Shown: piece after piece, positions 18,850-29,283 of the stretch
Layout of the letters: every line of letters begins with the position of its first letter
How positions within the stretch are numbered: the stretch's first letter is position 1
Source: a virus
Lineage: Duplodnaviria > Heunggongvirae > Uroviricota > Caudoviricetes
Direction: 5' to 3' (one strand)
Length of the DNA: 44,719 nucleotides
Virus record (IMG/VR): IMGVR_UViG_2737471862_000003
Span: 1-44,719 of that record
The notes under the pieces: model-generated
What the model was told of the DNA's origin: nothing
Seen by the model: the letters and a program-made list of their open reading frames with translations, nothing else
Databases searched by the model: none
Program-made: the position numbers and the translations under genes

Positions 18850-20410
18850 CGCCTTTTTCTCCCGTTGTCTGTCGGATCTGCTGTTGAAACGCGTCCTTTA
18901 TCCAGACCGGACGCGGAAGACCGGCAGCCTGTCGCTCCTGAGTTTCCCGTAGCTGCTGGCGGAAAATCTCCTGATAGTCATCCCCCATCAGGGCCAGCTC
19001 TTTCTCGTATGTACTCAGGCCGCCTTCAATGCGCATCACCGCTTCCTGCACTTCCTTAAGGCCATCAATCGCCATACGACCGGCACCAATCCACTCGGCA
19101 CGGCACCACCCGGAACGGGCCTCCCAGAATGAGAAACGGGATTTCGGCGGACGGATCACGCCACGAATAAGGGCTTCCTCCAGCCAGCAGGCAAACATCT
19201 GTGACGCCAGGCGACTGGCCACAAATTTTCGTTTTCCCATAAAATACCGCCACGACTCATTGGCGGATGCCCTGGCACTGGAATAACTGACCTGTGAATA
19301 ATCCCGGGAAAGCTGCTCATACGACACACCCAGTCCGGCAGCAATGTAACGTAACAGCGCCTTTTCCAGTTCAGAAAAACCATTATCCGCATTCTGGGCT
19401 GTCTGCAGATTCAGTGAATCTCCCGGGTAAAGATGCGGAATACGGACCCCGCCCAGTTTTACCGTATTGGTGGCGTAATAACGCGCGTAGCCTTTCATGA
19501 TGGTGTTCAGGGGATTTTTACCTCCATCTCCCACCCCGGCGATATATTCAAACGCTTTTTCCGAATCCAGTGTGGATTCAATCGTGGCGGCATACATGGC
19601 GCGAACCACCGCCGACTGCAGTTGCGTGGCCTGCAGTGTGTCGAGCATCTTGAGACGCTCCATTACAGAATAAAACTGGTTGGCCCCGCGGGTCTGCCCG
19701 TCTTCCTGTGGCTGAAACACATGGATCATTCCCGGTCGTCCGGAAGGCAGTGTTGCCGTAATTCGTGTCCATTTACTGACACCGTAGCCGGGCCAGTCAT
19801 CATCCTGAACATGGTAGGCCAGCGCTTTTCCGTGTCGGTTTATTTCCACCCCGGCACGCATAAAACGATCGCCGGTACCATAACCGGGTGTACTGACACG
19901 CTTCGGGCTGATGGTTTTGAATTTCGTCCGGAATAATGACGTGGATTCCGCATCCCATACGGGCTGGACAAAAATTTCACCGTTAAACGTATGGACCCCC
20001 ACCCCTTCACGAATGAATTCGGTAAACGAACGACGCCCTTCCACATCCATCGTACCAAACACCGGATCGCAGTATTCCATCCACGCCGCCTCAACATCTT
20101 CAATAAAAGCATGTGAATCTGCTTCCGACATCCCCAGCCAGCGCCAGTTGGGACGGTAACTCAGACGAAACATGTGCCCGACAATATGATCCTTATGAAT
20201 TTCCACTGCATTCGATGCAATACCGTTGTTACGGACCAGATCATCCGCGCGGGCGTTACCCAGATGAATGGAAGGTAAGAGCGCCACGTCGGCACTTTCC
20301 GGTGCAGGCAGCCATTCTGCCATTTGCCCACCGAACCCGGAACCACCACCAGAATATCCCATGCTTTGCCGTAAAGGCTGCCCATGAATATCCACCAGTT
20401 CCCCGTTCAC
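18839..20410 (-). CDS. B: portal protein B
   Basis: 523 aa, lambda B-like length and position between W and C. Overlaps the C start. Confidence 0.9.
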   Translation of the reverse strand: MNGELVDIHGQPLRQSMGYSGGGSGFGGQMAEWLPAPESADVALLPSIHLGNARADDLVRNNGIASNAVEIHKDHIVGHMFRLSYRPNWRWLGMSEADSHAFIEDVEAAWMEYCDPVFGTMDVEGRRSFTEFIREGVGVHTFNGEIFVQPVWDAESTSLFRTKFKTISPKRVSTPGYGTGDRFMRAGVEINRHGKALAYHVQDDDWPGYGVSKWTRITATLPSGRPGMIHVFQPQEDGQTRGANQFYSVMERLKMLDTLQATQLQSAVVRAMYAATIESTLDSEKAFEYIAGVGDGGKNPLNTIMKGYARYYATNTVKLGGVRIPHLYPGDSLNLQTAQNADNGFSELEKALLRYIAAGLGVSYEQLSRDYSQVSYSSARASANESWRYFMGKRKFVASRLASQMFACWLEEALIRGVIRPPKSRFSFWEARSGWCRAEWIGAGRMAIDGLKEVQEAVMRIEGGLSTYEKELALMGDDYQEIFRQQLRETQERQAAGLPRPVWIKDAFQQQIRQTTGEKGDAL

Positions 20411-20616
20411 AGCCCCACTCCTGCCGGGCCACGACGCCGTCCGGATACACCCAGCGCACTTTCCAGCTCTTCAATATACTGACGCAGTTCACCAATTGTC
20501 GCCCGCGAATACTGAACCTGACGCCCGTCCTTGCTGACGGAAACCACAGCACGTCCGATCATCAGTTCATGTAACGCCCGGCGGGCATCGCATAGCATTT
20601 CATGCGTATAAATCAT
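20407..20616 (-). CDS. W: head-tail connector protein W
   Basis: About 69 aa (…ARRALHELMIGRAVV.V.KDGR.V...RRRGPAG) matching lambda W. Confidence 0.85.
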   Translation of the reverse strand: MIYTHEMLCDARRALHELMIGRAVVSVSKDGRQVQYSRATIGELRQYIEELESALGVSGRRRGPAGVGL

Positions 20617-20619
20617 CAC

Positions 20620-22539
20620 TTATCCTCCACTCAGAGCAGCCGCGATTTCTTCAATAGTCATTTCATCGTCGTCCTGTTCATCTCTTCTGGCGCGGGCCAG
20701 TGCATCCAGATCCAGTTGCCACCGCTGAACGGAAATGCGCAGCGCTGCATAGGCATACACCAGACAGTCCAGAGCTTCATTACGCCGTTTTCTGGCATCC
20801 CACTGGAGTTTCACCCGCCCGTTCACAACTTTTTCAACCAGCTCTTCTGCCACGAGTTGTTTAGCTTCAACATCAGAAAAAATGTCCGGGTTATCCGGAA
20901 AACGGAAGGTATACGGTGCGACTTCACTGGCAGATACCACCGGCAGGGCAAAACGCGCATACAGCATTTCCTTGACGGTATCGGAACCCACCTCACACAA
21001 AAACACCCCACGCTGGTTTCGCTTTTTTGGCATGGTGATCACCGGCTTGCCGTACACCGACGCCCCTTTGATGGGGAGCACAAAAAAAGTGCCGTGTTTT
21101 CTGGATCGCTGATACACAATGTCCTGGTCAATACCACCGGTATCCCAGCAGACGCGGGAAATAGAAATTTCAGTGCCATCTGCATGACGGTATTTTTTCC
21201 GGATCACGGCATCAACGCGTTTAAGGGTGTCCTCATCTTCCGGTCTCCCCATGATGATCTGCTTGTCAATCAGAAAAGCTTCTTCGCCAGGAGCCCAGCC
21301 CCAGACATAAATCTCATAACGGTTTTTCTGAGAGTCAATCCCTGCGGTCAGGTAAACCACCCGCAGGGGAACCTGCGCATCATAGTGGCAGACTTTTTCC
21401 AGCAACAACTCAAAGCTCAGTTTTTCTGCCACAGCCTCTTCATAAGGCTCCCCCAGCGTGGTGTTAATGAACGTCTTGACGCCATTCGGATCCTTCAGTG
21501 CATCAAGCCAGTCATAAACAATCTGTACCCAGGTGGTGAACGGGCTGTATGCCGTCCAGATGTGGTACGAGATTGAGCGCGGTGGCGGGATTTCCTCATC
21601 ACCGGCGCTGTAAAATGTCAGACCGTCACGCGTCCACATCCCGGTATTGTCACAAATCCACCGCCCGTCGGTCTGGTCAAGTTCCGACTGACGGATCACG
21701 CAGCCATTATGTTCACACAGGTAATACACCGTCTCCGGCTTGCCCTTCTCCCATTTCAGGCCAAAGGTTGTCGCATCATCGCCAAACTTCAGATACTGGG
21801 CTTCACCACAATGAGGGCATGGCACATAAAACCGCATAAAATGTGCAGATTCGTTCGCGGCTTTTTCAATCTGGCAAAAACCTTTAATTTTGGGCGTTGA
21901 GCCGCGTATGGATTTAGGCCATACCGAACCTTCGATACGCTTATCGCCAAGCAGAGTTGGTGAACCTTCTTTTTCCACATCCGGTTCAAACGAGGAGAGT
22001 TCGTCATAGCAGACCACATCCACAGATTTTTCACGGTAGTTTTTGGCAGCAGCTCCGCCCAGACACCAGAATCCCACACCGGAGGAGAAACGTTTCAGGG
22101 TAAGCGTGTTGTCCCGATGTTTTCTGCCAAACCACGGAGCCAGCTCCAGTAATACAGGAACGTCTCTTATCGTTGGTTCGACATGGGATTTCATAAAATC
22201 TTCTGCCGCAGAATCTGTCGGCTGAAAAAGCAGGCTGTTACGGGATTTGTGTTCAATAAAATAAGCCTCCACCCCCAACAGCATTTTGGTGTAACCAACA
22301 CGCGCCGATTTAATCAGATTAACGGTGCGGATCCGGTCATTCCCCATGCTGTTCATGATGGCAACCTGAAACGGCAGTGTTTCCCATTGCCCGGGAGTAT
22401 ATGAAGACTCTTTTGGCAGATAATAATGCTGATCAGCCCACTGAACTGTCGTCAGTGGTACCGGAATATTGAGAGATACAAGCCCTGTTGCTATCGCACC
22501 GGCTGCATTAGCTGCCTTCTGTGCGTCTGAAATCATCAA
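20620..22539 (-). CDS. A: terminase large subunit A
   Basis: 639 aa with lambda gpA-like sequence throughout ([12 protein letters not shown]...HVEPTIRD...DELSSFEPD...[11 protein letters not shown]). Confidence 0.95.
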
Positions 22540-23781: not shown

Positions 23782-24006
23782 TCATGAAACAGGCAACAAC
23801 GTGGCTGTTACAATCTCCGCCATATTCGCGTTAAGATCACATTCAACAGAAATTTCTTCATCCGTGGCATCCACTTCATATGTCCGGGAATAACATTCCG
23901 TGCATTTACCACTGAAGATATCCTTAACCAGAACACGTCCACGCTGCAAAACCCTGAATGGAATCGTTCCGTTAAAGGGCTTTACGGTTACCAGTAATCT
24001 CTTCAT
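23782..24006 (-). CDS. hypothetical 74 aa protein immediately upstream of cos
   Basis: Internal ATG (MKRLLVTVKPFNGTIPFRVLQRG...) preceded by a strong GGAGG ribosome-binding site. No family recognised. Confidence 0.5.
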   Translation of the reverse strand: MKRLLVTVKPFNGTIPFRVLQRGRVLVKDIFSGKCTECYSRTYEVDATDEEISVECDLNANMAEIVTATLLPVS

Positions 24007-24168
24007 ATCCCCTCCGGATAAAAATGCCCCTTGCCGCCCGGGCAGTTGCTTGATTCGGCAAGATTTAGAATGAATAAGATAAAATTGGCACACGCAGCAG
24101 AATTTCATGCTTTCCGGACGCCGGCGCATCTTTCATTTTTCAGCAAAATATTCTGCTATTACAGGCGA

Positions 24169-24351
24169 TCAGTTCTGCATACACTGCCGAACACCATCAA
24201 TAAGCTGACAGACCTGAGACGCGGTATCGAAAAGCTGGCGCGCCTTATCCAGGCTGACGCATCCCACCAGGAAAAAAGGCACCAGTATCGCTACCAGTGC
24301 CCATTTCGCCGCTGTTCGCGGCGTTCTGTGTGTCCAGTGTTTTCGCTTCAT
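24169..24351 (-). CDS. small lipoprotein (60 aa; signal peptide with LVGC lipobox)
   Basis: MKRKHWTHRTPRTAAKWALVAILVPFFLVGC... The start lies 4 nt after the stop of the preceding small gene. Confidence 0.55.
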   Translation of the reverse strand: MKRKHWTHRTPRTAAKWALVAILVPFFLVGCVSLDKARQLFDTASQVCQLIDGVRQCMQN

Positions 24352-24355
24352 CTCA

Positions 24356-24490
24356 CTATCCACCAATCAATCCGGATAAGCTCAATACTCGCCAGGCGGT
24401 GGAAATGAAAATGGCAACCAACATTGCTGAAAATGAAAGACCAACAACCACACAGAGAATTCGCGCCAGTTTTATAATGCTATCTGACAT
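24356..24490 (-). CDS. small single-pass membrane peptide (44 aa)
   Basis: MSDSIIKLARILCVVVGLSFSAMLVAIFISTAWRV... with a G-rich ribosome-binding site. Tightly packed between two other small genes. Confidence 0.45.
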   Translation of the reverse strand: MSDSIIKLARILCVVVGLSFSAMLVAIFISTAWRVLSLSGLIGG

Positions 24491-24507
24491 ATTTACCCCT
24501 GCCCCAC

Positions 24508-24690
24508 TTACGATTTCACAGCAATGATCAATTTTGCCATCCCATACAGAATCGGAGACACAGCGATACCGACCGCCACCCACTTAATGGCAAAAGCCAC
24601 CGCTCTGCTGATGTCATCAGTTACAGGCGCTTTCAATTCAAGGCCGTTTTTCATAGTCAACCTCAACAGAATTCGTTTATACTTCTCCAT
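24508..24690 (-). CDS. small membrane protein (60 aa, C-terminal transmembrane segment)
   Basis: MEKYKRILLRLTMKNG...AIKWVAVGIAVSPILYGMAKLIIAV, with a GGGAG ribosome-binding site. First gene of a three-gene mini-operon. Confidence 0.5.
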   Translation of the reverse strand: MEKYKRILLRLTMKNGLELKAPVTDDISRAVAFAIKWVAVGIAVSPILYGMAKLIIAVKS

Positions 24691-24722
24691 GTTCTCCCTT
24701 GCTTACTCAAGGTCAGAAACAG

Positions 24723-24760
24723 AAAACCCCGAACTGTTCCCGCAGCCGGGGTTTTTGCTT
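24723..24760. terminator. bidirectional intrinsic terminator
   Basis: AAAACCCCG...CGGGGTTTTTGCTTTTT hairpin flanked by A-run and T-run, directly after the stop of the 93 aa gene. Coordinates approximate. Confidence 0.55.
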
Positions 24761-24761
24761 T

Positions 24762-25043
24762 TTATTTATCTGTATGGGCGCGACATCTTGCTATTTCATT
24801 CCGGGCTTCACTGTCGCCACGACAGATACAACGCGCCGTGTCACCGTTCAGTGTGATGATGTAGGCTTCATCCTCTTTTTCTACAGGAATGCACGGAATA
24901 TTCCCGTCCCGGCAATACTCAATCTTCGCTGCAAGATGAGTGTTACGCGGATAGAACTCCAGGCGGTACATATCCCCCAGGACATGCACTTCCTCAACAT
25001 GACGACCGTCTTCTGTTACCGTGATTTTCTTGAGTGCGTACAT
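24762..25043 (-). CDS. hypothetical 93 aa protein (Cys-containing, soluble)
   Basis: ATG start with a GGAGG ribosome-binding site and its own downstream terminator. No family recognised. Confidence 0.55.
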   Translation of the reverse strand: MYALKKITVTEDGRHVEEVHVLGDMYRLEFYPRNTHLAAKIEYCRDGNIPCIPVEKEDEAYIITLNGDTARCICRGDSEARNEIARCRAHTDK

Positions 25044-25122: not shown

Positions 25123-25329
25123 TCAGGATGTATGGCAATCTCTGCAGCACCAGTAACATCCATTCACCCTCGTGTAACCCAGATTTTTTGCGGCCTTCAC
25201 TGCCGGCTCACATGAGCTAAACTCTCCAAGCTCTTTACGATTGTTTGCATCAGGAAGTCGAAAACATGTTTCTGTATGAACCTCATGATCGTTCTGATTA
25301 TCTGTAAGAGTGTGAACATAGTACTTCAT
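25123..25329 (-). CDS. hypothetical small Cys-rich protein (68 aa)
   Basis: Internal ATG with a GGAG ribosome-binding site. MKYYVHTLTDNQNDHEVHTETCF...GCYWCCRDCH suggests a possible metal-binding peptide. Confidence 0.5.
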   Translation of the reverse strand: MKYYVHTLTDNQNDHEVHTETCFRLPDANNRKELGEFSSCEPAVKAAKNLGYTRVNGCYWCCRDCHTS

Positions 25330-25418: not shown

Positions 25419-25964
25419 TCACACAGCCACGCGCTCTTTCATCCAGCCATAGACAAACGACTCATTGGCCTCGCGTTTCTCTGCCAGCTCCAGATAACGC
25501 TCGCCCTGCGTACAGTTCAGGGCTTTCACCAGTACCAGTTCACCATCCCTGCTGCGATTTTTCAGATATGCCCGTAACGCATTAAGAGTACGCGGCCCGA
25601 TGCGTCCATCAGCATCCATATCCGGATAGAGTTTCCCGCGCAGGTTGAAAACGTTCAGCCAGCGCTGAAGCATTCTGGACGCCACAGTTGGCCCCATGTT
25701 CACGCCCGTATCGCACAGTTCTGCGGCAATATCCGGCGACAGAGTTGCCACCTGGTCAAAACGTGGTCCGAACCAGTAATCCGCCTCGAGTATTTCCAGC
25801 GCCTGCCCGCGCGTCAGGTCACGCATATCGCCCTGATAACCGTGTGCACGGGCAACTTTTTCAGTGATGCCCCATTTAGTCGGACCACCTTTATCATCCG
25901 GGTGATTGACGTAACCGCCCTCTTTTCCCAGAATTTCGTCAAAAATTTCATCTTTCGACTTCAT
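25419..25964 (-). CDS. endolysin, glycoside hydrolase family 108-like N-terminal domain plus C-terminal peptidoglycan-binding domain
   Basis: The motif EGGYVNHPDDKGGPTKWGIT is characteristic of GH108-type muramidases. The gene sits directly downstream of two membrane-protein genes in the lysis position. Confidence 0.8.
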   Translation of the reverse strand: MKSKDEIFDEILGKEGGYVNHPDDKGGPTKWGITEKVARAHGYQGDMRDLTRGQALEILEADYWFGPRFDQVATLSPDIAAELCDTGVNMGPTVASRMLQRWLNVFNLRGKLYPDMDADGRIGPRTLNALRAYLKNRSRDGELVLVKALNCTQGERYLELAEKREANESFVYGWMKERVAV

Positions 25965-25965
25965 A

Positions 25966-26256
25966 TCAGCGCCTTCGTAATACAAGGATTTTTGATACGT
26001 TCCCGCGTGCTCGTATCACCAGCACGCAGAACACCAGGTTAATCAGGACGACCAGCCAGTTACCGGGTGGAAAGCGACCACACAGATAACAAAGCGGCGC
26101 AAAGGCATAAAGCAGCATCAGCAGCCAGGCCAGCCACGACATCAGCGGTTTATGTCTCGACTCACCACGACGATAAAAAAAGAGCGTCAGCACGATAACC
26201 GTGCTTAACACCACATTCAGTAATCCGGGAAGGTTACTTAACATTACCGCCTCCAC
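25966..26256 (-). CDS. hydrophobic membrane protein, holin/antiholin-like
   Basis: 96 aa, almost entirely hydrophobic with two or three predicted transmembrane segments. Overlaps the 3' end of the upstream holin-like gene and abuts the endolysin. Confidence 0.55.
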   Translation of the reverse strand: MEAVMLSNLPGLLNVVLSTVIVLTLFFYRRGESRHKPLMSWLAWLLMLLYAFAPLCYLCGRFPPGNWLVVLINLVFCVLVIRARGNVSKILVLRRR

Positions 26257-26623
26257 CCCGCAGACGGGAGAACAGCCCGGATACCAGCGATGCGATATCC
26301 TGCTGGTGGATGAATGAGAGAATCTTCACCGACACCACCGATACCAGTACCGCGCAAAGTGCGTCGAGAGATGTGCTGTGGAGATTCAGTTTTTCAACCA
26401 GGTAAGACGCCATCACATCCGCCCCCAGCACGCCAACAATGAACGACACCAGAAAATGCGCTGCCACACGCCAGACAGAAATCTTCTGTGGTATCGTGGC
26501 CACAAACAGCGCCCCTGCGAATGCACCAAACACAATCCCGAAATCCGTTCCGGTAAACAGCCCGAATACCGTCGCCCCGCCGAGCGCCGCAGCCGTGCCG
26601 GAACCGGACAAGGGTTCAGACAT
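26234..26623 (-). CDS. putative holin (multi-transmembrane, 129 aa)
   Basis: Gly/Ala-rich transmembrane segments and the first gene of the lysis cassette. Assignment is by position and composition only. Confidence 0.6.
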   Translation of the reverse strand: MSEPLSGSGTAAALGGATVFGLFTGTDFGIVFGAFAGALFVATIPQKISVWRVAAHFLVSFIVGVLGADVMASYLVEKLNLHSTSLDALCAVLVSVVSVKILSFIHQQDIASLVSGLFSRLRGGGGNVK

Positions 26624-26800: not shown

Positions 26801-27544
26801 TTATTCTTGAGTAACACTTAAACTCATCTCATTGAATGCAGCCATCCTGTAACCTGCCGGTGTAACACCAAAATAACTCCTGAATACGCTGATAAAATAA
26901 GATGTAAAATTATAGCCACACTGAGCAGCGATTCTGTTGATGGCGCAACGAGATTGAGTCAACAGCATTGCTGCCATTCTCATTCTCTCTGTAAGCAACA
27001 ACTCACTGAAACAGGTGCCTTCTTCTTTCAGTCTTTTTTTTAACAAACTTTCACTGATACATAACCGCGAAGACACATCTCTCAGAGTCCAGTTTGCTGC
27101 AATGTCCGTACGAAACAATGCACTAAGCCTGTCACTAATATTGCCAATACACGCGGTCAGAAACGACGAAAACATTTTCTCTGATGAGAAAAACGCCAGA
27201 CACGAAAAGGAAAGCATTTCCGCTAAATTGTCCGTATGAATCTTTTCCTCACAAAGATAATCAATCAGGATGCCCATCAATTCTGCCTTGGGAAAACTCA
27301 CGCAAAGATATCGTGGTATTTGCCGGACTAAAACTACATCCTGTTTTTCGTCTCCACACAACAGGTAACGGATAATTGTCGATTCACTGAGACTTATTCG
27401 CCGAAAACATTCCGAAAAGGGCAATAACGATCCAGCTCCCCCCCTGACAAGAAGTGCACTACCACTTTCCAGAGAGAGCTCTTTTCCTTCAAAGAGCACA
27501 ACAAACGGGGAATGAACAAAAACAACAGAACAAGCTTCATTCAT
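26801..27544 (-). CDS. AraC/XylS-family transcriptional regulator (AppY/GadX-like)
   Basis: The C-terminal double helix-turn-helix AraC signature (LRDVSSRLCISESLLKKRLKEEGT.F...IAAQCGYNFTSYFISVFRSYFGVTPAGY) is clear. Start placed at the internal ATG. The gene is AT-rich relative to its surroundings. Confidence 0.85.
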   Translation of the reverse strand: MNEACSVVFVHSPFVVLFEGKELSLESGSALLVRGGAGSLLPFSECFRRISLSESTIIRYLLCGDEKQDVVLVRQIPRYLCVSFPKAELMGILIDYLCEEKIHTDNLAEMLSFSCLAFFSSEKMFSSFLTACIGNISDRLSALFRTDIAANWTLRDVSSRLCISESLLKKRLKEEGTCFSELLLTERMRMAAMLLTQSRCAINRIAAQCGYNFTSYFISVFRSYFGVTPAGYRMAAFNEMSLSVTQE

Positions 27545-27666
27545 ATCAATTGCCCTGACATTACTGGTCACAAGATAAGTATATATCGATTTACAAAAAT
27601 ACAAGCCGAAAGACCAGTATTCGCAACCACCAGCGCGTTTAACGTCCTGTACCGTTTTTCAGGCAT

Positions 27667-27767: not shown

Positions 27768-28256
27768 TTAAAACCGTTCCAGAGTGCATACCATCGCATC
27801 GGCGGGTAGTTTTTCCGTGAAGTCGACCTGACCGTGTTTATCGAAGTGGATCAGTAATGCGCATCCATCATTTTGGGTTGGGGTGTTTTGTGCTGCTGGT
27901 GGTTGTTTTTGGCTGAAATAACAGTCTTCCAGTTTTTCGAACACTTCCCACGCCTGATCGGTTTCCAGCATTTTGGCGTGACGGGCTGCTCCGCGTTCTG
28001 TCCAGAGGATGAGGTGCTTTGTACGCGGTGCAACTAAGTTACTTTGAGTAACCTTGTTCTTAAATTCCCGCAACTCAGCCCCTTCCAATTTGAAGTAGTG
28101 TTTCCCACAAACAAAACGCTCGGCATTGCGTGTATAGTTCACTTTGATGTTATTAGTTTCGGTGCCATAAAGTTGTGCCAAAAGCTCGGTAGTAATGACA
28201 GGGATTTGGTTATGGGTGATCGGGGAAAGAGTTTCAACTGAGATTTGAATAGCCAT
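27768..28256 (-). CDS. ORF6N/KilA-N-like phage regulatory (antirepressor-like) protein
   Basis: N-terminus (…IPVITTELLAQLYGTETNNIKVNYTRNAERFVCGKHYFKLEGAELREFK…) resembles the ORF6N DNA-binding domain. Family assignment is from memory. Confidence 0.55.
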   Translation of the reverse strand: MAIQISVETLSPITHNQIPVITTELLAQLYGTETNNIKVNYTRNAERFVCGKHYFKLEGAELREFKNKVTQSNLVAPRTKHLILWTERGAARHAKMLETDQAWEVFEKLEDCYFSQKQPPAAQNTPTQNDGCALLIHFDKHGQVDFTEKLPADAMVCTLERF

Positions 28257-28412
28257 AGGATGATCCTTTTTCTATGTGAATCATCACCACTGCTGACGCC
28301 AATCAGTATGGTGGTGAACTGTGCAGGGTTGGCGTAACCGGGAAAAAGGAACCGGCGCGGATCGCTCCGCCCCCACACAGCCCACCATTGAGATGTGACA
28401 GTGCAAACGACA

Positions 28413-28434
28413 ATAAAAAAGACGCTGGCGCGTC
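28413..28434 (-). terminator. tR'-like intrinsic terminator downstream of the late promoter
   Basis: GACGC-TGGC-GCGTC hairpin plus a T-run on the minus strand, about 60-70 nt downstream of the candidate late promoter. Coordinates approximate. Confidence 0.55.
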
Positions 28435-28495
28435 TGTTGTCGCCTTTTTCATCCGGGACGCCAATCCCGACGCCAGATTTTGCTGGCGCGTGAGG

Positions 28496-28525
28496 AATAT
28501 AGCCCCGGACAATGTGTCTGGTCAA
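28496..28525 (-). promoter_or_regulatory. candidate late promoter pR' (TTGACC-N18-TATATT) overlapping the Q stop
   Basis: The sigma70-like -35/-10 pair is read directly from the minus strand immediately 3' of Q. The position matches lambdoid pR'/qut. Confidence 0.45.
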
Positions 28526-28529
28526 GCTC

Positions 28530-28916
28530 CTACATGATTCGTTCTACGTATCTGTCCATCTCCAGTCGGATATCAAGCATCATCAACATGCCATCAATAA
28601 CCCCTTCCGCTTTCTGCAGGCGCTTGCCAATACAAGTATCCGAACACCCATGCTTTCGTGCCAACCCCATAAAAGTCATTCCACCTACGTAATAATCCAC
28701 CAACAAATCGTGCAAATCCTGATTTTTCTTGTTCAACCGGGCCATACAGCCACAAATTATCATTGCATCATCATCAGAACACTGAGGGCGTGATTTCACT
28801 TTCGGCGGGATTAATCCTTTAAAACCAGCAGCGATTGACGCCCATGACACATCTTCGTGATTGTTCGCAGCCCATGATCCCCACCGCTCCATAACCTGCT
28901 GAATATCACGCACCAT
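28530..28916 (-). CDS. late gene antiterminator Q (QuuD / phage 82 Q family)
   Basis: [35 protein letters not shown]...[16 protein letters not shown]... resembles the DLP12 QuuD-type Q antiterminator. Its start overlaps the RusA stop. Confidence 0.8.
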
Positions 28917-29283
28917 CGTTATCACCTGTAATTTCGTAAATCTTCACGCCCAACCGCCCACCAGGAACAGGCAGTCCGCGCACAATATTGATTTCATCAA
29001 ACTGCTCGTCGTCTATAAGTAGTCCGGCATGCGTCAGCGCATCCAGTGGTGCTTTCAGAATATTGTCCAGGTCACGACGGCGCTTATCCGGCGGCTCTGC
29101 AATAATTTTTATTGCCAGCCTTCCGGACAGGTTTAATTTCAGTCGCTGCTGGCGAACAATAAGCGCCACATCACGGCGATAACGCTCACCGGCTTTTGAT
29201 ACAAAATATGTGCTGCCACGACGTCGCCAGTAGGTGTTCACCGTTGGCGGGTAAGGCAAAACAAATTCTATGCGTTCAGTCAT
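28906..29283 (-). CDS. rusA: RusA Holliday junction resolvase
   Basis: 125 aa with [13 protein letters not shown]...DLDN..K...DALT motifs typical of RusA. Adjacent to Q, as in DLP12. Confidence 0.85.

Follow-up and report, generated by a model that had tools for sequence, protein, structure and literature searches.

A solitary lipoprotein at the spanin position of a P27-type phage lysis cassette: a candidate outer-membrane lysis factor

How does a phage open the outer membrane of its host when no canonical spanin can be found in its genome? Current models hold that lysis of Gram-negative bacteria needs either a membrane-linking spanin or a cationic membrane-active peptide (disruptin). The question is raised by the Caudoviricetes record IMGVR_UViG_2737471862_000003, an Escherichia coli prophage of 44.7 kb with a tail-fibre assembly gene at one end and an integrase gene at the other, which was analysed over its full length (the window). 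A first-pass annotation had recognised a holin-like gene, a second membrane protein, and a GH108-type endolysin, in agreement with the domain matches, and had suggested that three small genes downstream, here called A, B, and C, act together as a substitute for the spanin pair Rz/Rz1. The lipoprotein encoded by C is indeed a credible candidate for the outer-membrane step, with a homologue from phage phiP27 listed in a published spanin census; the joint action of the trio did not survive the comparison of related loci. The best explanation, to which a probability of roughly 55% is assigned, is that C is an outer-membrane lysis factor and that A and B are unrelated accessories. C would then be a partnerless lipoprotein in the spanin slot that probably acts on the outer membrane. 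This lack of a partner is the new point, as the phiP27 homologue has already been catalogued as an outer-membrane spanin subunit (o-spanin), with an inner-membrane partner (i-spanin) that fails. The features in question are the following (aa, amino acids; TMD, transmembrane domain; 3-TM, three transmembrane segments).

28530..28925, minus strand: late-gene antiterminator Q
26234..26623, minus strand: holin of the Phage_holin_8 family (domain/PHROG match)
25966..26256, minus strand: 3-TM holin family protein, Phage_holin_3_7 (domain/PHROG match)
25419..25964, minus strand: endolysin, GH108 and PG_binding_3 (domain match)
24712..24760, both strands: bidirectional intrinsic terminator hairpin, AAAACCCCG...CGGGGTTTT, with T-runs on both strands
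24508..24690, minus strand: gene A, 60 aa, with a basic N-terminal stretch of 30 residues and a C-terminal TMD; phrog_1115; first gene of the A-B module
24356..24490, minus strand: gene B, a 44-aa peptide with a single TMD; phrog_4906; second gene of the A-B module
24169..24351, minus strand: gene C, a 60-aa prolipoprotein with lipobox LVGC (Cys31); terminal gene of the P27-type lysis cassette

The absence of a canonical Rz/Rz1 pair, noted from the start, was borne out. Two heuristic six-frame scans of the 44.7 kb detected no other credible open reading frame (ORF) with a lipobox, no Rz-like type II membrane protein with a periplasmic tail (except antisense artefacts and Lom), and no unimolecular spanin, i.e. 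a lipobox combined with a C-terminal TMD; a search of the alternative frames revealed no hidden i-spanin either. In a prophage of E. coli RM11911, which is integrated beside ompW and whose lysis region is 98.6% identical, PGAP annotates no spanin. Rz is present in 277 of 279 Shiga toxin (Stx) phages, the two exceptions forming the Stx2e (P27) cluster with a metallopeptidase endolysin (Pinto et al., PMC8136144).

The three small minus-strand ORFs lie where they had been placed, with the sizes, individual ribosome-binding sites, and LVGC lipobox described for them. AAGGGAGAAC, a Shine-Dalgarno-like sequence, stands directly upstream of the ATG of A, while AGGGG precedes the ATG of B by 6 nucleotides (nt) and GGTGGA that of C by 7 nt; the intergenic gaps measure 17 nt (A-B) and 4 nt (B-C). 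All three match PHROGs of unknown function (E = 1e-19 to 1e-41), and the ratio of nonsynonymous to synonymous polymorphism (pN/pS) across unique phage-contig copies is 0.29 for A, 0.11 for B, and 0.28 for C. A, B, and C are real genes under purifying selection. Sequence searches of Pfam, NCBIfam, PADLOC, and PDB returned nothing significant for any of them. The hairpin (z = -3.4) ends about 20 nt before the ATG of A and therefore leaves no room for a promoter, as the first-pass annotation had remarked; the Q-antiterminated late transcript that it proposed instead is the sole visible route of expression, with the Q gene at 28925-28530.

Whether the trio acts as a unit was judged by mapping reference proteins onto IMG/VR loci, 80 with C and 79 with A; counts for C loci refer to the 77 in which the endolysin is also visible. 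Of the A loci, 59 end in Rz/Rz1, 17 are P27-type cassettes ending in C at the equivalent position, and three are truncated. In the majority type, A-B lies between lysozyme R and the intact spanin genes (order S, R, A, B, Rz with embedded Rz1; in O157:H7 prophages S, YdfR, lysozyme, A, B, Rz), and the module is therefore not a spanin substitute. Conversely, 36 of the 77 C loci lack both A and B; between endolysin and C, 41 have A or its divergent form A2, and 24 have B. These two distributions do not support the proposal of a joint substitute. A and B also occur with unrelated holins, and together with the hairpin they constitute a mobile module, inserted between the endolysin and the last lysis gene of two unrelated cassette types.

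Gene C, by contrast, follows the lysis cassette. It stands directly behind the endolysin, with nothing in between, in 33 of the 77 loci, and these compact loci contain neither a promoter nor a terminator between the two genes: after an M15 endolysin the gap is 14 nt long and contains AGGTG, and in one locus the start of C overlaps the stop codon of the GH108 gene as ATGA. M15 and GH108 are unrelated endolysin families, and C is likewise combined with three holin arrangements, namely hol8+hol3TM and two single holins of about 115-118 aa. The same gene order was seen in Escherichia, Salmonella, Citrobacter, and Lelliottia, including a divergent subfamily (CVSLEKARNWFGVAADVCDTVKKIKDRCNDRK); a scan of GTDB species representatives yielded three C loci only, all of them consistent with this synteny. 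The packaging modules downstream of C vary between a lambda Nu1/A type and an HNH type, and the virion modules differ as well. Among 5426 complete E. coli genomes, C was counted in 381 and the hol8-hol3TM pair in 384.

None of the 80 C loci has Rz/Rz1 within 6 kb of C, and no other recurrent same-strand lipoprotein ORF was found over this distance; the only other real lipoprotein nearby is Bor, on the opposite strand, in eight loci. C-like sequence beside Rz/Rz1 was met in three places examined (GER2, L162, and an O157:H16 genome). The remnants, which share about 77% DNA identity with C, are unannotated and carry a frameshift near the start as well as three in-frame stops; in Stx-type phages they are found about 0.75 kb downstream of Rz, behind a gene for an Ais-like phosphatase on the reverse strand. 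In total, 66 E. coli records match C in the 60-80% identity band; one of them was checked and is a pseudogene. C and Rz/Rz1 are thus mutually exclusive alternatives at the last position of the cassette. The pseudogene remnants are located as follows.

4309-4476 of L237 (phage GER2, MG710528): C pseudogene remnant
2501-2684 of L238: C pseudogene remnant
6555-6716 of L162: C pseudogene remnant

The C protein comprises a basic n-region of 17 residues, an h-region, the lipobox with Cys31, Val at position +2, and 29 residues after the cysteine. Across the family, Gly30 (lipobox) and Cys48 never vary, at least 90% of the sequences keep Cys31 and Cys57, and position +2 holds V, A, T, S, or G, but never Asp. 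The part behind Cys31 is 29 residues long in most members, free of proline, and without a hydrophobic segment. By pN/pS, the three segments (n-region, h-region, mature part) are constrained to a similar degree. Since residues 2-17 are constrained like the remainder of the protein, and since Met10, from which the 51-aa phiP27 version is read, is replaced by Thr in the window so that the shorter start is unavailable, the predicted product is the 60-aa form with its 17-residue basic n-region. AlphaFold models C as one long helix (residues 12-59) with modest confidence, the pLDDT being 69 and about 61-69 in the mature part, too low for a fold search to be informative; for the phiP27 homologue, Jpred gave 83% helix (PMC6139136). 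The amphipathic moment of mature C is approximately 0.55 (0.46-0.62); the version in the window has a net charge of 0, and family members span values from -4 to +3. No Pfam or NCBIfam family matched C at E up to 1, although the Pfam set includes a model for Rz1. A word-indexed search for relatives gave 145 clusters, every one from Enterobacterales and with an identity of 68% or more. Among 1.84 billion representatives, an exhaustive HMMER search retrieved 23 matches at E <=0.001, most of them clear C-type lipoproteins or fragments. Judged by these searches, the C family appears to be small, isolated, and enterobacterial, with no link to a spanin family.

A possible course of events can be outlined from these properties. 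As the fourth and last gene of a P27-type cassette made up of holin(s), endolysin, and small lipoprotein, C would be read from the Q-dependent late transcript, to judge from its position and orientation and the absence of a promoter. Its lipobox and the non-Asp +2 residue suggest that the product would be exported, lipidated at Cys31, and sorted by the Lol system to the inner leaflet of the outer membrane. The mature lipoprotein would be an amphipathic helix of 29 residues, probably joined into disulfide-linked oligomers, and harmless as long as the murein is intact. After destruction of the wall by holin and endolysin, it might make the outer membrane unstable or bring about its fusion with the turgor-pressed inner membrane; for anything like fusion, the inner membrane would have to be forced outward against the outer one once the wall is gone. 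The helix may instead perturb the outer membrane directly or via a host factor such as phospholipase A. C might even represent a third route for breaching the outer membrane, in which a solitary, lipid-anchored helix of 29 residues with two conserved cysteines, lacking a second membrane anchor, replaces Rz/Rz1 alone; this extended version is put forward tentatively, at somewhat less than even odds.

The question of a partner leads to phage phiP27, for which a census of spanins lists a 'separated' two-component system (Kongari et al., 2018, BMC Bioinformatics 19:326, PMC6139136). Its o-spanin (20706-20861 of AJ298298) and i-spanin (20348-20542) are both singleton families, and their combined periplasmic length of 62 residues is the shortest in the census, where the range is 62-300 (PMC6139136). 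The o-spanin is a homologue of C, 88% identical and read there from an internal Met. It resembles C in its position after the endolysin, its processed length, and its predicted helical character, and differs in being a computational call with a 51-aa start, paired with an ORF that begins with TTG. This 64-aa TTG ORF (3287-3481 of L003) overlaps, in antisense, a 90-aa ORF with a full-length match to phrog_36812, whereas it matches no PHROG itself; the insert that carries it occurs in 3 of the 77 loci and is missing from the window and from the other 74. Because the candidate i-spanin is rare, antisense to a conserved gene, and without a PHROG match, the published call appears unsafe: the pair was probably mis-called, and C is effectively partnerless.

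Nor do A and B readily supply the missing subunit. A is tail-anchored, with its N-terminus predicted inside and almost nothing outside, and B, with a strong TMD at residues 11-29 and a likely N-in/C-out topology, has at most 13 residues beyond it; neither is predicted to have a periplasmic domain able to reach the outer membrane. Since a dedicated inner-membrane partner is lacking, C is classed neither with two-component nor with unimolecular spanins. With o-spanins it shares a lipobox cysteine followed by a non-Asp +2 residue and a lysis-cassette position downstream of the endolysin; a cognate i-spanin gene, a bridging periplasmic length, and membership of a described o-spanin family were not found.

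A literature search found no experiments on P27-type lysis, on solitary o-spanins, or on a small RNA between R and Rz. Several known systems can be compared with C. Lambda Rz1 is an outer-membrane lipoprotein, as is predicted for C, and is likewise encoded last in its cassette, with a small mature domain (40 aa) and conserved periplasmic cysteines. The two share no sequence similarity, however: Rz1 is unstructured and has 10 prolines, whereas C is predicted to be helical and has none, and C, unlike o-spanins, is not embedded in, overlapping, or adjoining an i-spanin gene. The unimolecular spanin gp11 of T1 also devotes one gene to the outer-membrane step, as is proposed for C, and has an N-terminal lipoprotein signal. 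Its polypeptide continues through a periplasm-spanning domain to a C-terminal TMD in the inner membrane, while C ends 29 residues past the lipid anchor and lacks such a TMD. The disruptin gp28 of phiKT (bioRxiv 10.1101/515445), from a phage without spanins, is a small amphipathic helix that acts alone, as C is proposed to do, but it is cationic, LL-37-like, and devoid of a signal sequence, whereas C has a predicted lipid anchor, a signal sequence, and a charge of varying sign. The amphipathic moment of LL-37 is 0.89 as opposed to 0.55 for C. Colicin lysis proteins, or bacteriocin release proteins (Pfam Lysis_col), are very small lipoproteins as well, with mature parts of about 27-35 residues, and permeabilise the envelope by themselves. 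Their signal peptide is functionally important; that of C is unusually long and conserved as much as the mature part. They differ from C in the lack of sequence similarity, in their glycine/serine-rich composition, and in belonging to an SOS-controlled colicin operon instead of a phage late operon; C does not match Lysis_col and has two extra cysteines.

Several observations weigh against C as an outer-membrane lysis factor. A tether of 29 residues is too short for an intact periplasm, so that the mechanism would have to be unlike that of known spanins, and the varying charge of the mature part speaks against a cationic membrane-active peptide. No HMMER match ties C to spanin, disruptin, or colicin lysis families. 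The decay of C beside Rz/Rz1 was seen in three places only, which probably go back to one common ancestor. The interval between endolysin and cos is, moreover, a cargo hot spot, and C could likewise be cargo or dispensable. Rac-SA53 (L236, KU052037, 4798-5938), an LT-II enterotoxin prophage, has the same holin pair and GH108 endolysin, but neither C nor Rz; the LT-IIa A and B genes are found in place of A-B-C.

These last points favour the strongest rival, namely that C is not a lysis protein but a surface-modifying cargo lipoprotein, either one that masks receptors or excludes superinfecting phages, of the kind of T5 Llp or phi80/N15 Cor, or a serum-resistance factor of the Bor kind. Llp and Cor are likewise small outer-membrane lipoproteins, and the interval is rich in cargo, including LT-II toxin genes, the opposite-strand Bor, and three further small ORFs (see below). 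Against this stand the orientation of C with the endolysin and its tight or translational coupling to it in compact loci, the matching genome counts of C and the holin pair, and its decay where Rz/Rz1 is present. C tracks the lysis cassette and not the variable tail or packaging module, and no promoter of its own was found, which separates it from Llp and Cor; the PADLOC search adds no support. A cargo role is thus considered unlikely, at well under half the probability given to an outer-membrane lysis factor. The toxin and exclusion functions that the first-pass annotation offered as alternatives are less likely for C than for A-B.

As for A and B, their most likely role is that of a putative lysis modulator at the inner membrane. 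The conserved core of A is its C-terminal TMD, with variants bearing other N-termini; its relatives in the search are annotated as 'hypothetical protein' only, and neither A nor B matches a Pfam or NCBIfam holin family, which sets them apart from known holins and antiholins. A precedent is Lcc6 of the Shewanella phage LambdaSo, a 65-aa protein with a single TMD, required besides holin, endolysin, and spanin for the holin step of lysis (bioRxiv 10.1101/2024.01.23.576932). Homology with it is not expected, and it differs in that its gene lies far from the lysis genes and its TMD is followed by a cytoplasmic tail, a layout reversed in A.

It is improbable, but worth considering, that A-B is instead a small membrane-toxin cassette under antisense control, similar to type I toxin-antitoxin systems. 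The reading derives from a feature within the start of A:

24654..24683, plus strand: promoter-like site TAGTCA-18 nt-TATACT, antisense to codons 3-13 of A

Among 60 unique variants, the -10 element of this site reads TATACT 56 times and TATAAT 4 times; the -35 element, set off by an 18-nt spacer, is TAGTCA, TGGACA, TGGTCA, or TTGTCA, and the pair is kept even in the divergent A2, which has 50% protein identity. The hairpin accompanies A in both cassette types while its inner stem varies by lineage, and its T-run is better on the antisense strand. Site and terminator could together give rise, as a hypothesis only, to a putative antisense RNA of about 75 nt over the ribosome-binding site of A. 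The small hydrophobic nature of both peptides and the mobility of the module fit such a cassette as well. Against this, the site lies within coding sequence, and its conservation may only mirror the conserved K-Y-K and L-T-M codons; the promoter scan overall gave fewer matches than expected by chance. No compensatory pair changes were detected, Rfam gave sub-threshold matches only at the start region of A, and no sense promoter for the putative toxin was found.

Less probable again than a cargo function of C is an accessory role in lysis on another target, such as lysis timing or the Lpp/murein linkage, in phages that lack any outer-membrane disruptor. About 13% of the phages of Gram-negative hosts in the census (91 of 677) have no identifiable spanin (Kongari et al., 2018, PMC6139136), and small additional lysis factors such as Lcc6 do exist. 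The independence of C from the holin and endolysin families argues against a regulator specific to either, and its predicted site, the outer membrane, is the sole envelope layer otherwise untouched by the cassette.

Finally, a separated two-component spanin composed of the trio or of B+C, with B or A as the inner-membrane and C as the outer-membrane subunit, is very unlikely: B lies just upstream of C and has a suitable topology, and the phiP27 homologue was classed as half of such a pair (PMC6139136), but B is present in fewer than a third of the C loci (24 of 77), A and B mostly coexist with intact Rz/Rz1, the 29 residues of C and 13 of B fall short of the 62-residue census minimum, A is tail-anchored, and the i-spanin of the census is the rare TTG ORF antisense to the phrog_36812 gene.

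Further features of the locus deserve mention. Between endolysin and cos, six small ORFs were found instead of the three counted by the first-pass annotation, the additional ones being:

25123..25329, minus strand: 68-aa ORF, Cys-rich (CYWCCRDC)
24762..25043, minus strand: 93-aa ORF
23782..24006, minus strand: 74-aa ORF

They are conserved but present or absent among related loci and thus cargo-like; a strong terminator at 25099-25078 follows the Cys-rich ORF. A short element shared with lambda-type cassettes lies next to C:

24134..24155, minus strand: 22-nt junction element CAGAATATTTTGCTGAAAAATG, directly 3' of the stop codon of C; also at 3389-3410 of L001

In P27-type cassettes (126 places), no more than 20 nt separate it from the stop codon of C; in lambda-type cassettes (62 places), it follows the stop codon of lysozyme R. 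A structured RNA was considered for this region and rejected, since the fold is no better than that of shuffled sequences (z = -0.8); for this reason the element is treated as what looks like a recombination junction common to both module types.

The region 28307-28500 (minus strand), which directly follows the Q gene and precedes an ORF with an ORF6N domain (27768-28256), contains two matches above the Rfam gathering score, the Hfq-binding RNA isrK (28415-28489, 79 bits) and a C4 antisense RNA (28307-28392, 74 bits), as well as a match to the c4 target a1b1 near the threshold. The region looks like an antisense-controlled antirepressor or late-control locus of the Gifsy-1/P1 type. Between Q and the holin lies a gene for an AraC-family regulator (26801-27604, minus strand) with terminator-like hairpins on both flanks; in related phages this cargo position is taken by stx2e/stx2k or pertussis-like toxin genes. 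In two loci of the divergent C subfamily (4458-5222 of L165 and L166), the toxin-cargo position just upstream of the holin encodes a 254-aa protein with one TMD and a long tail resembling a coiled coil.

The A-B module is present in 1754 of the 5426 complete E. coli genomes (about a third) and always lies inside lysis cassettes. If C acts as proposed, it would be the smallest known outer-membrane disruptor and an easy genetic handle on the failure of the outer membrane after loss of the wall, and a spanin entry in the reference census would be corrected. Rz/Rz1 would then be replaced in a phage group that about 7% of complete E. coli genomes carry and to which Stx2e- and Stx2k-converting phages belong, which makes the question relevant to the toxin-converting phages of pathogenic E. 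coli.

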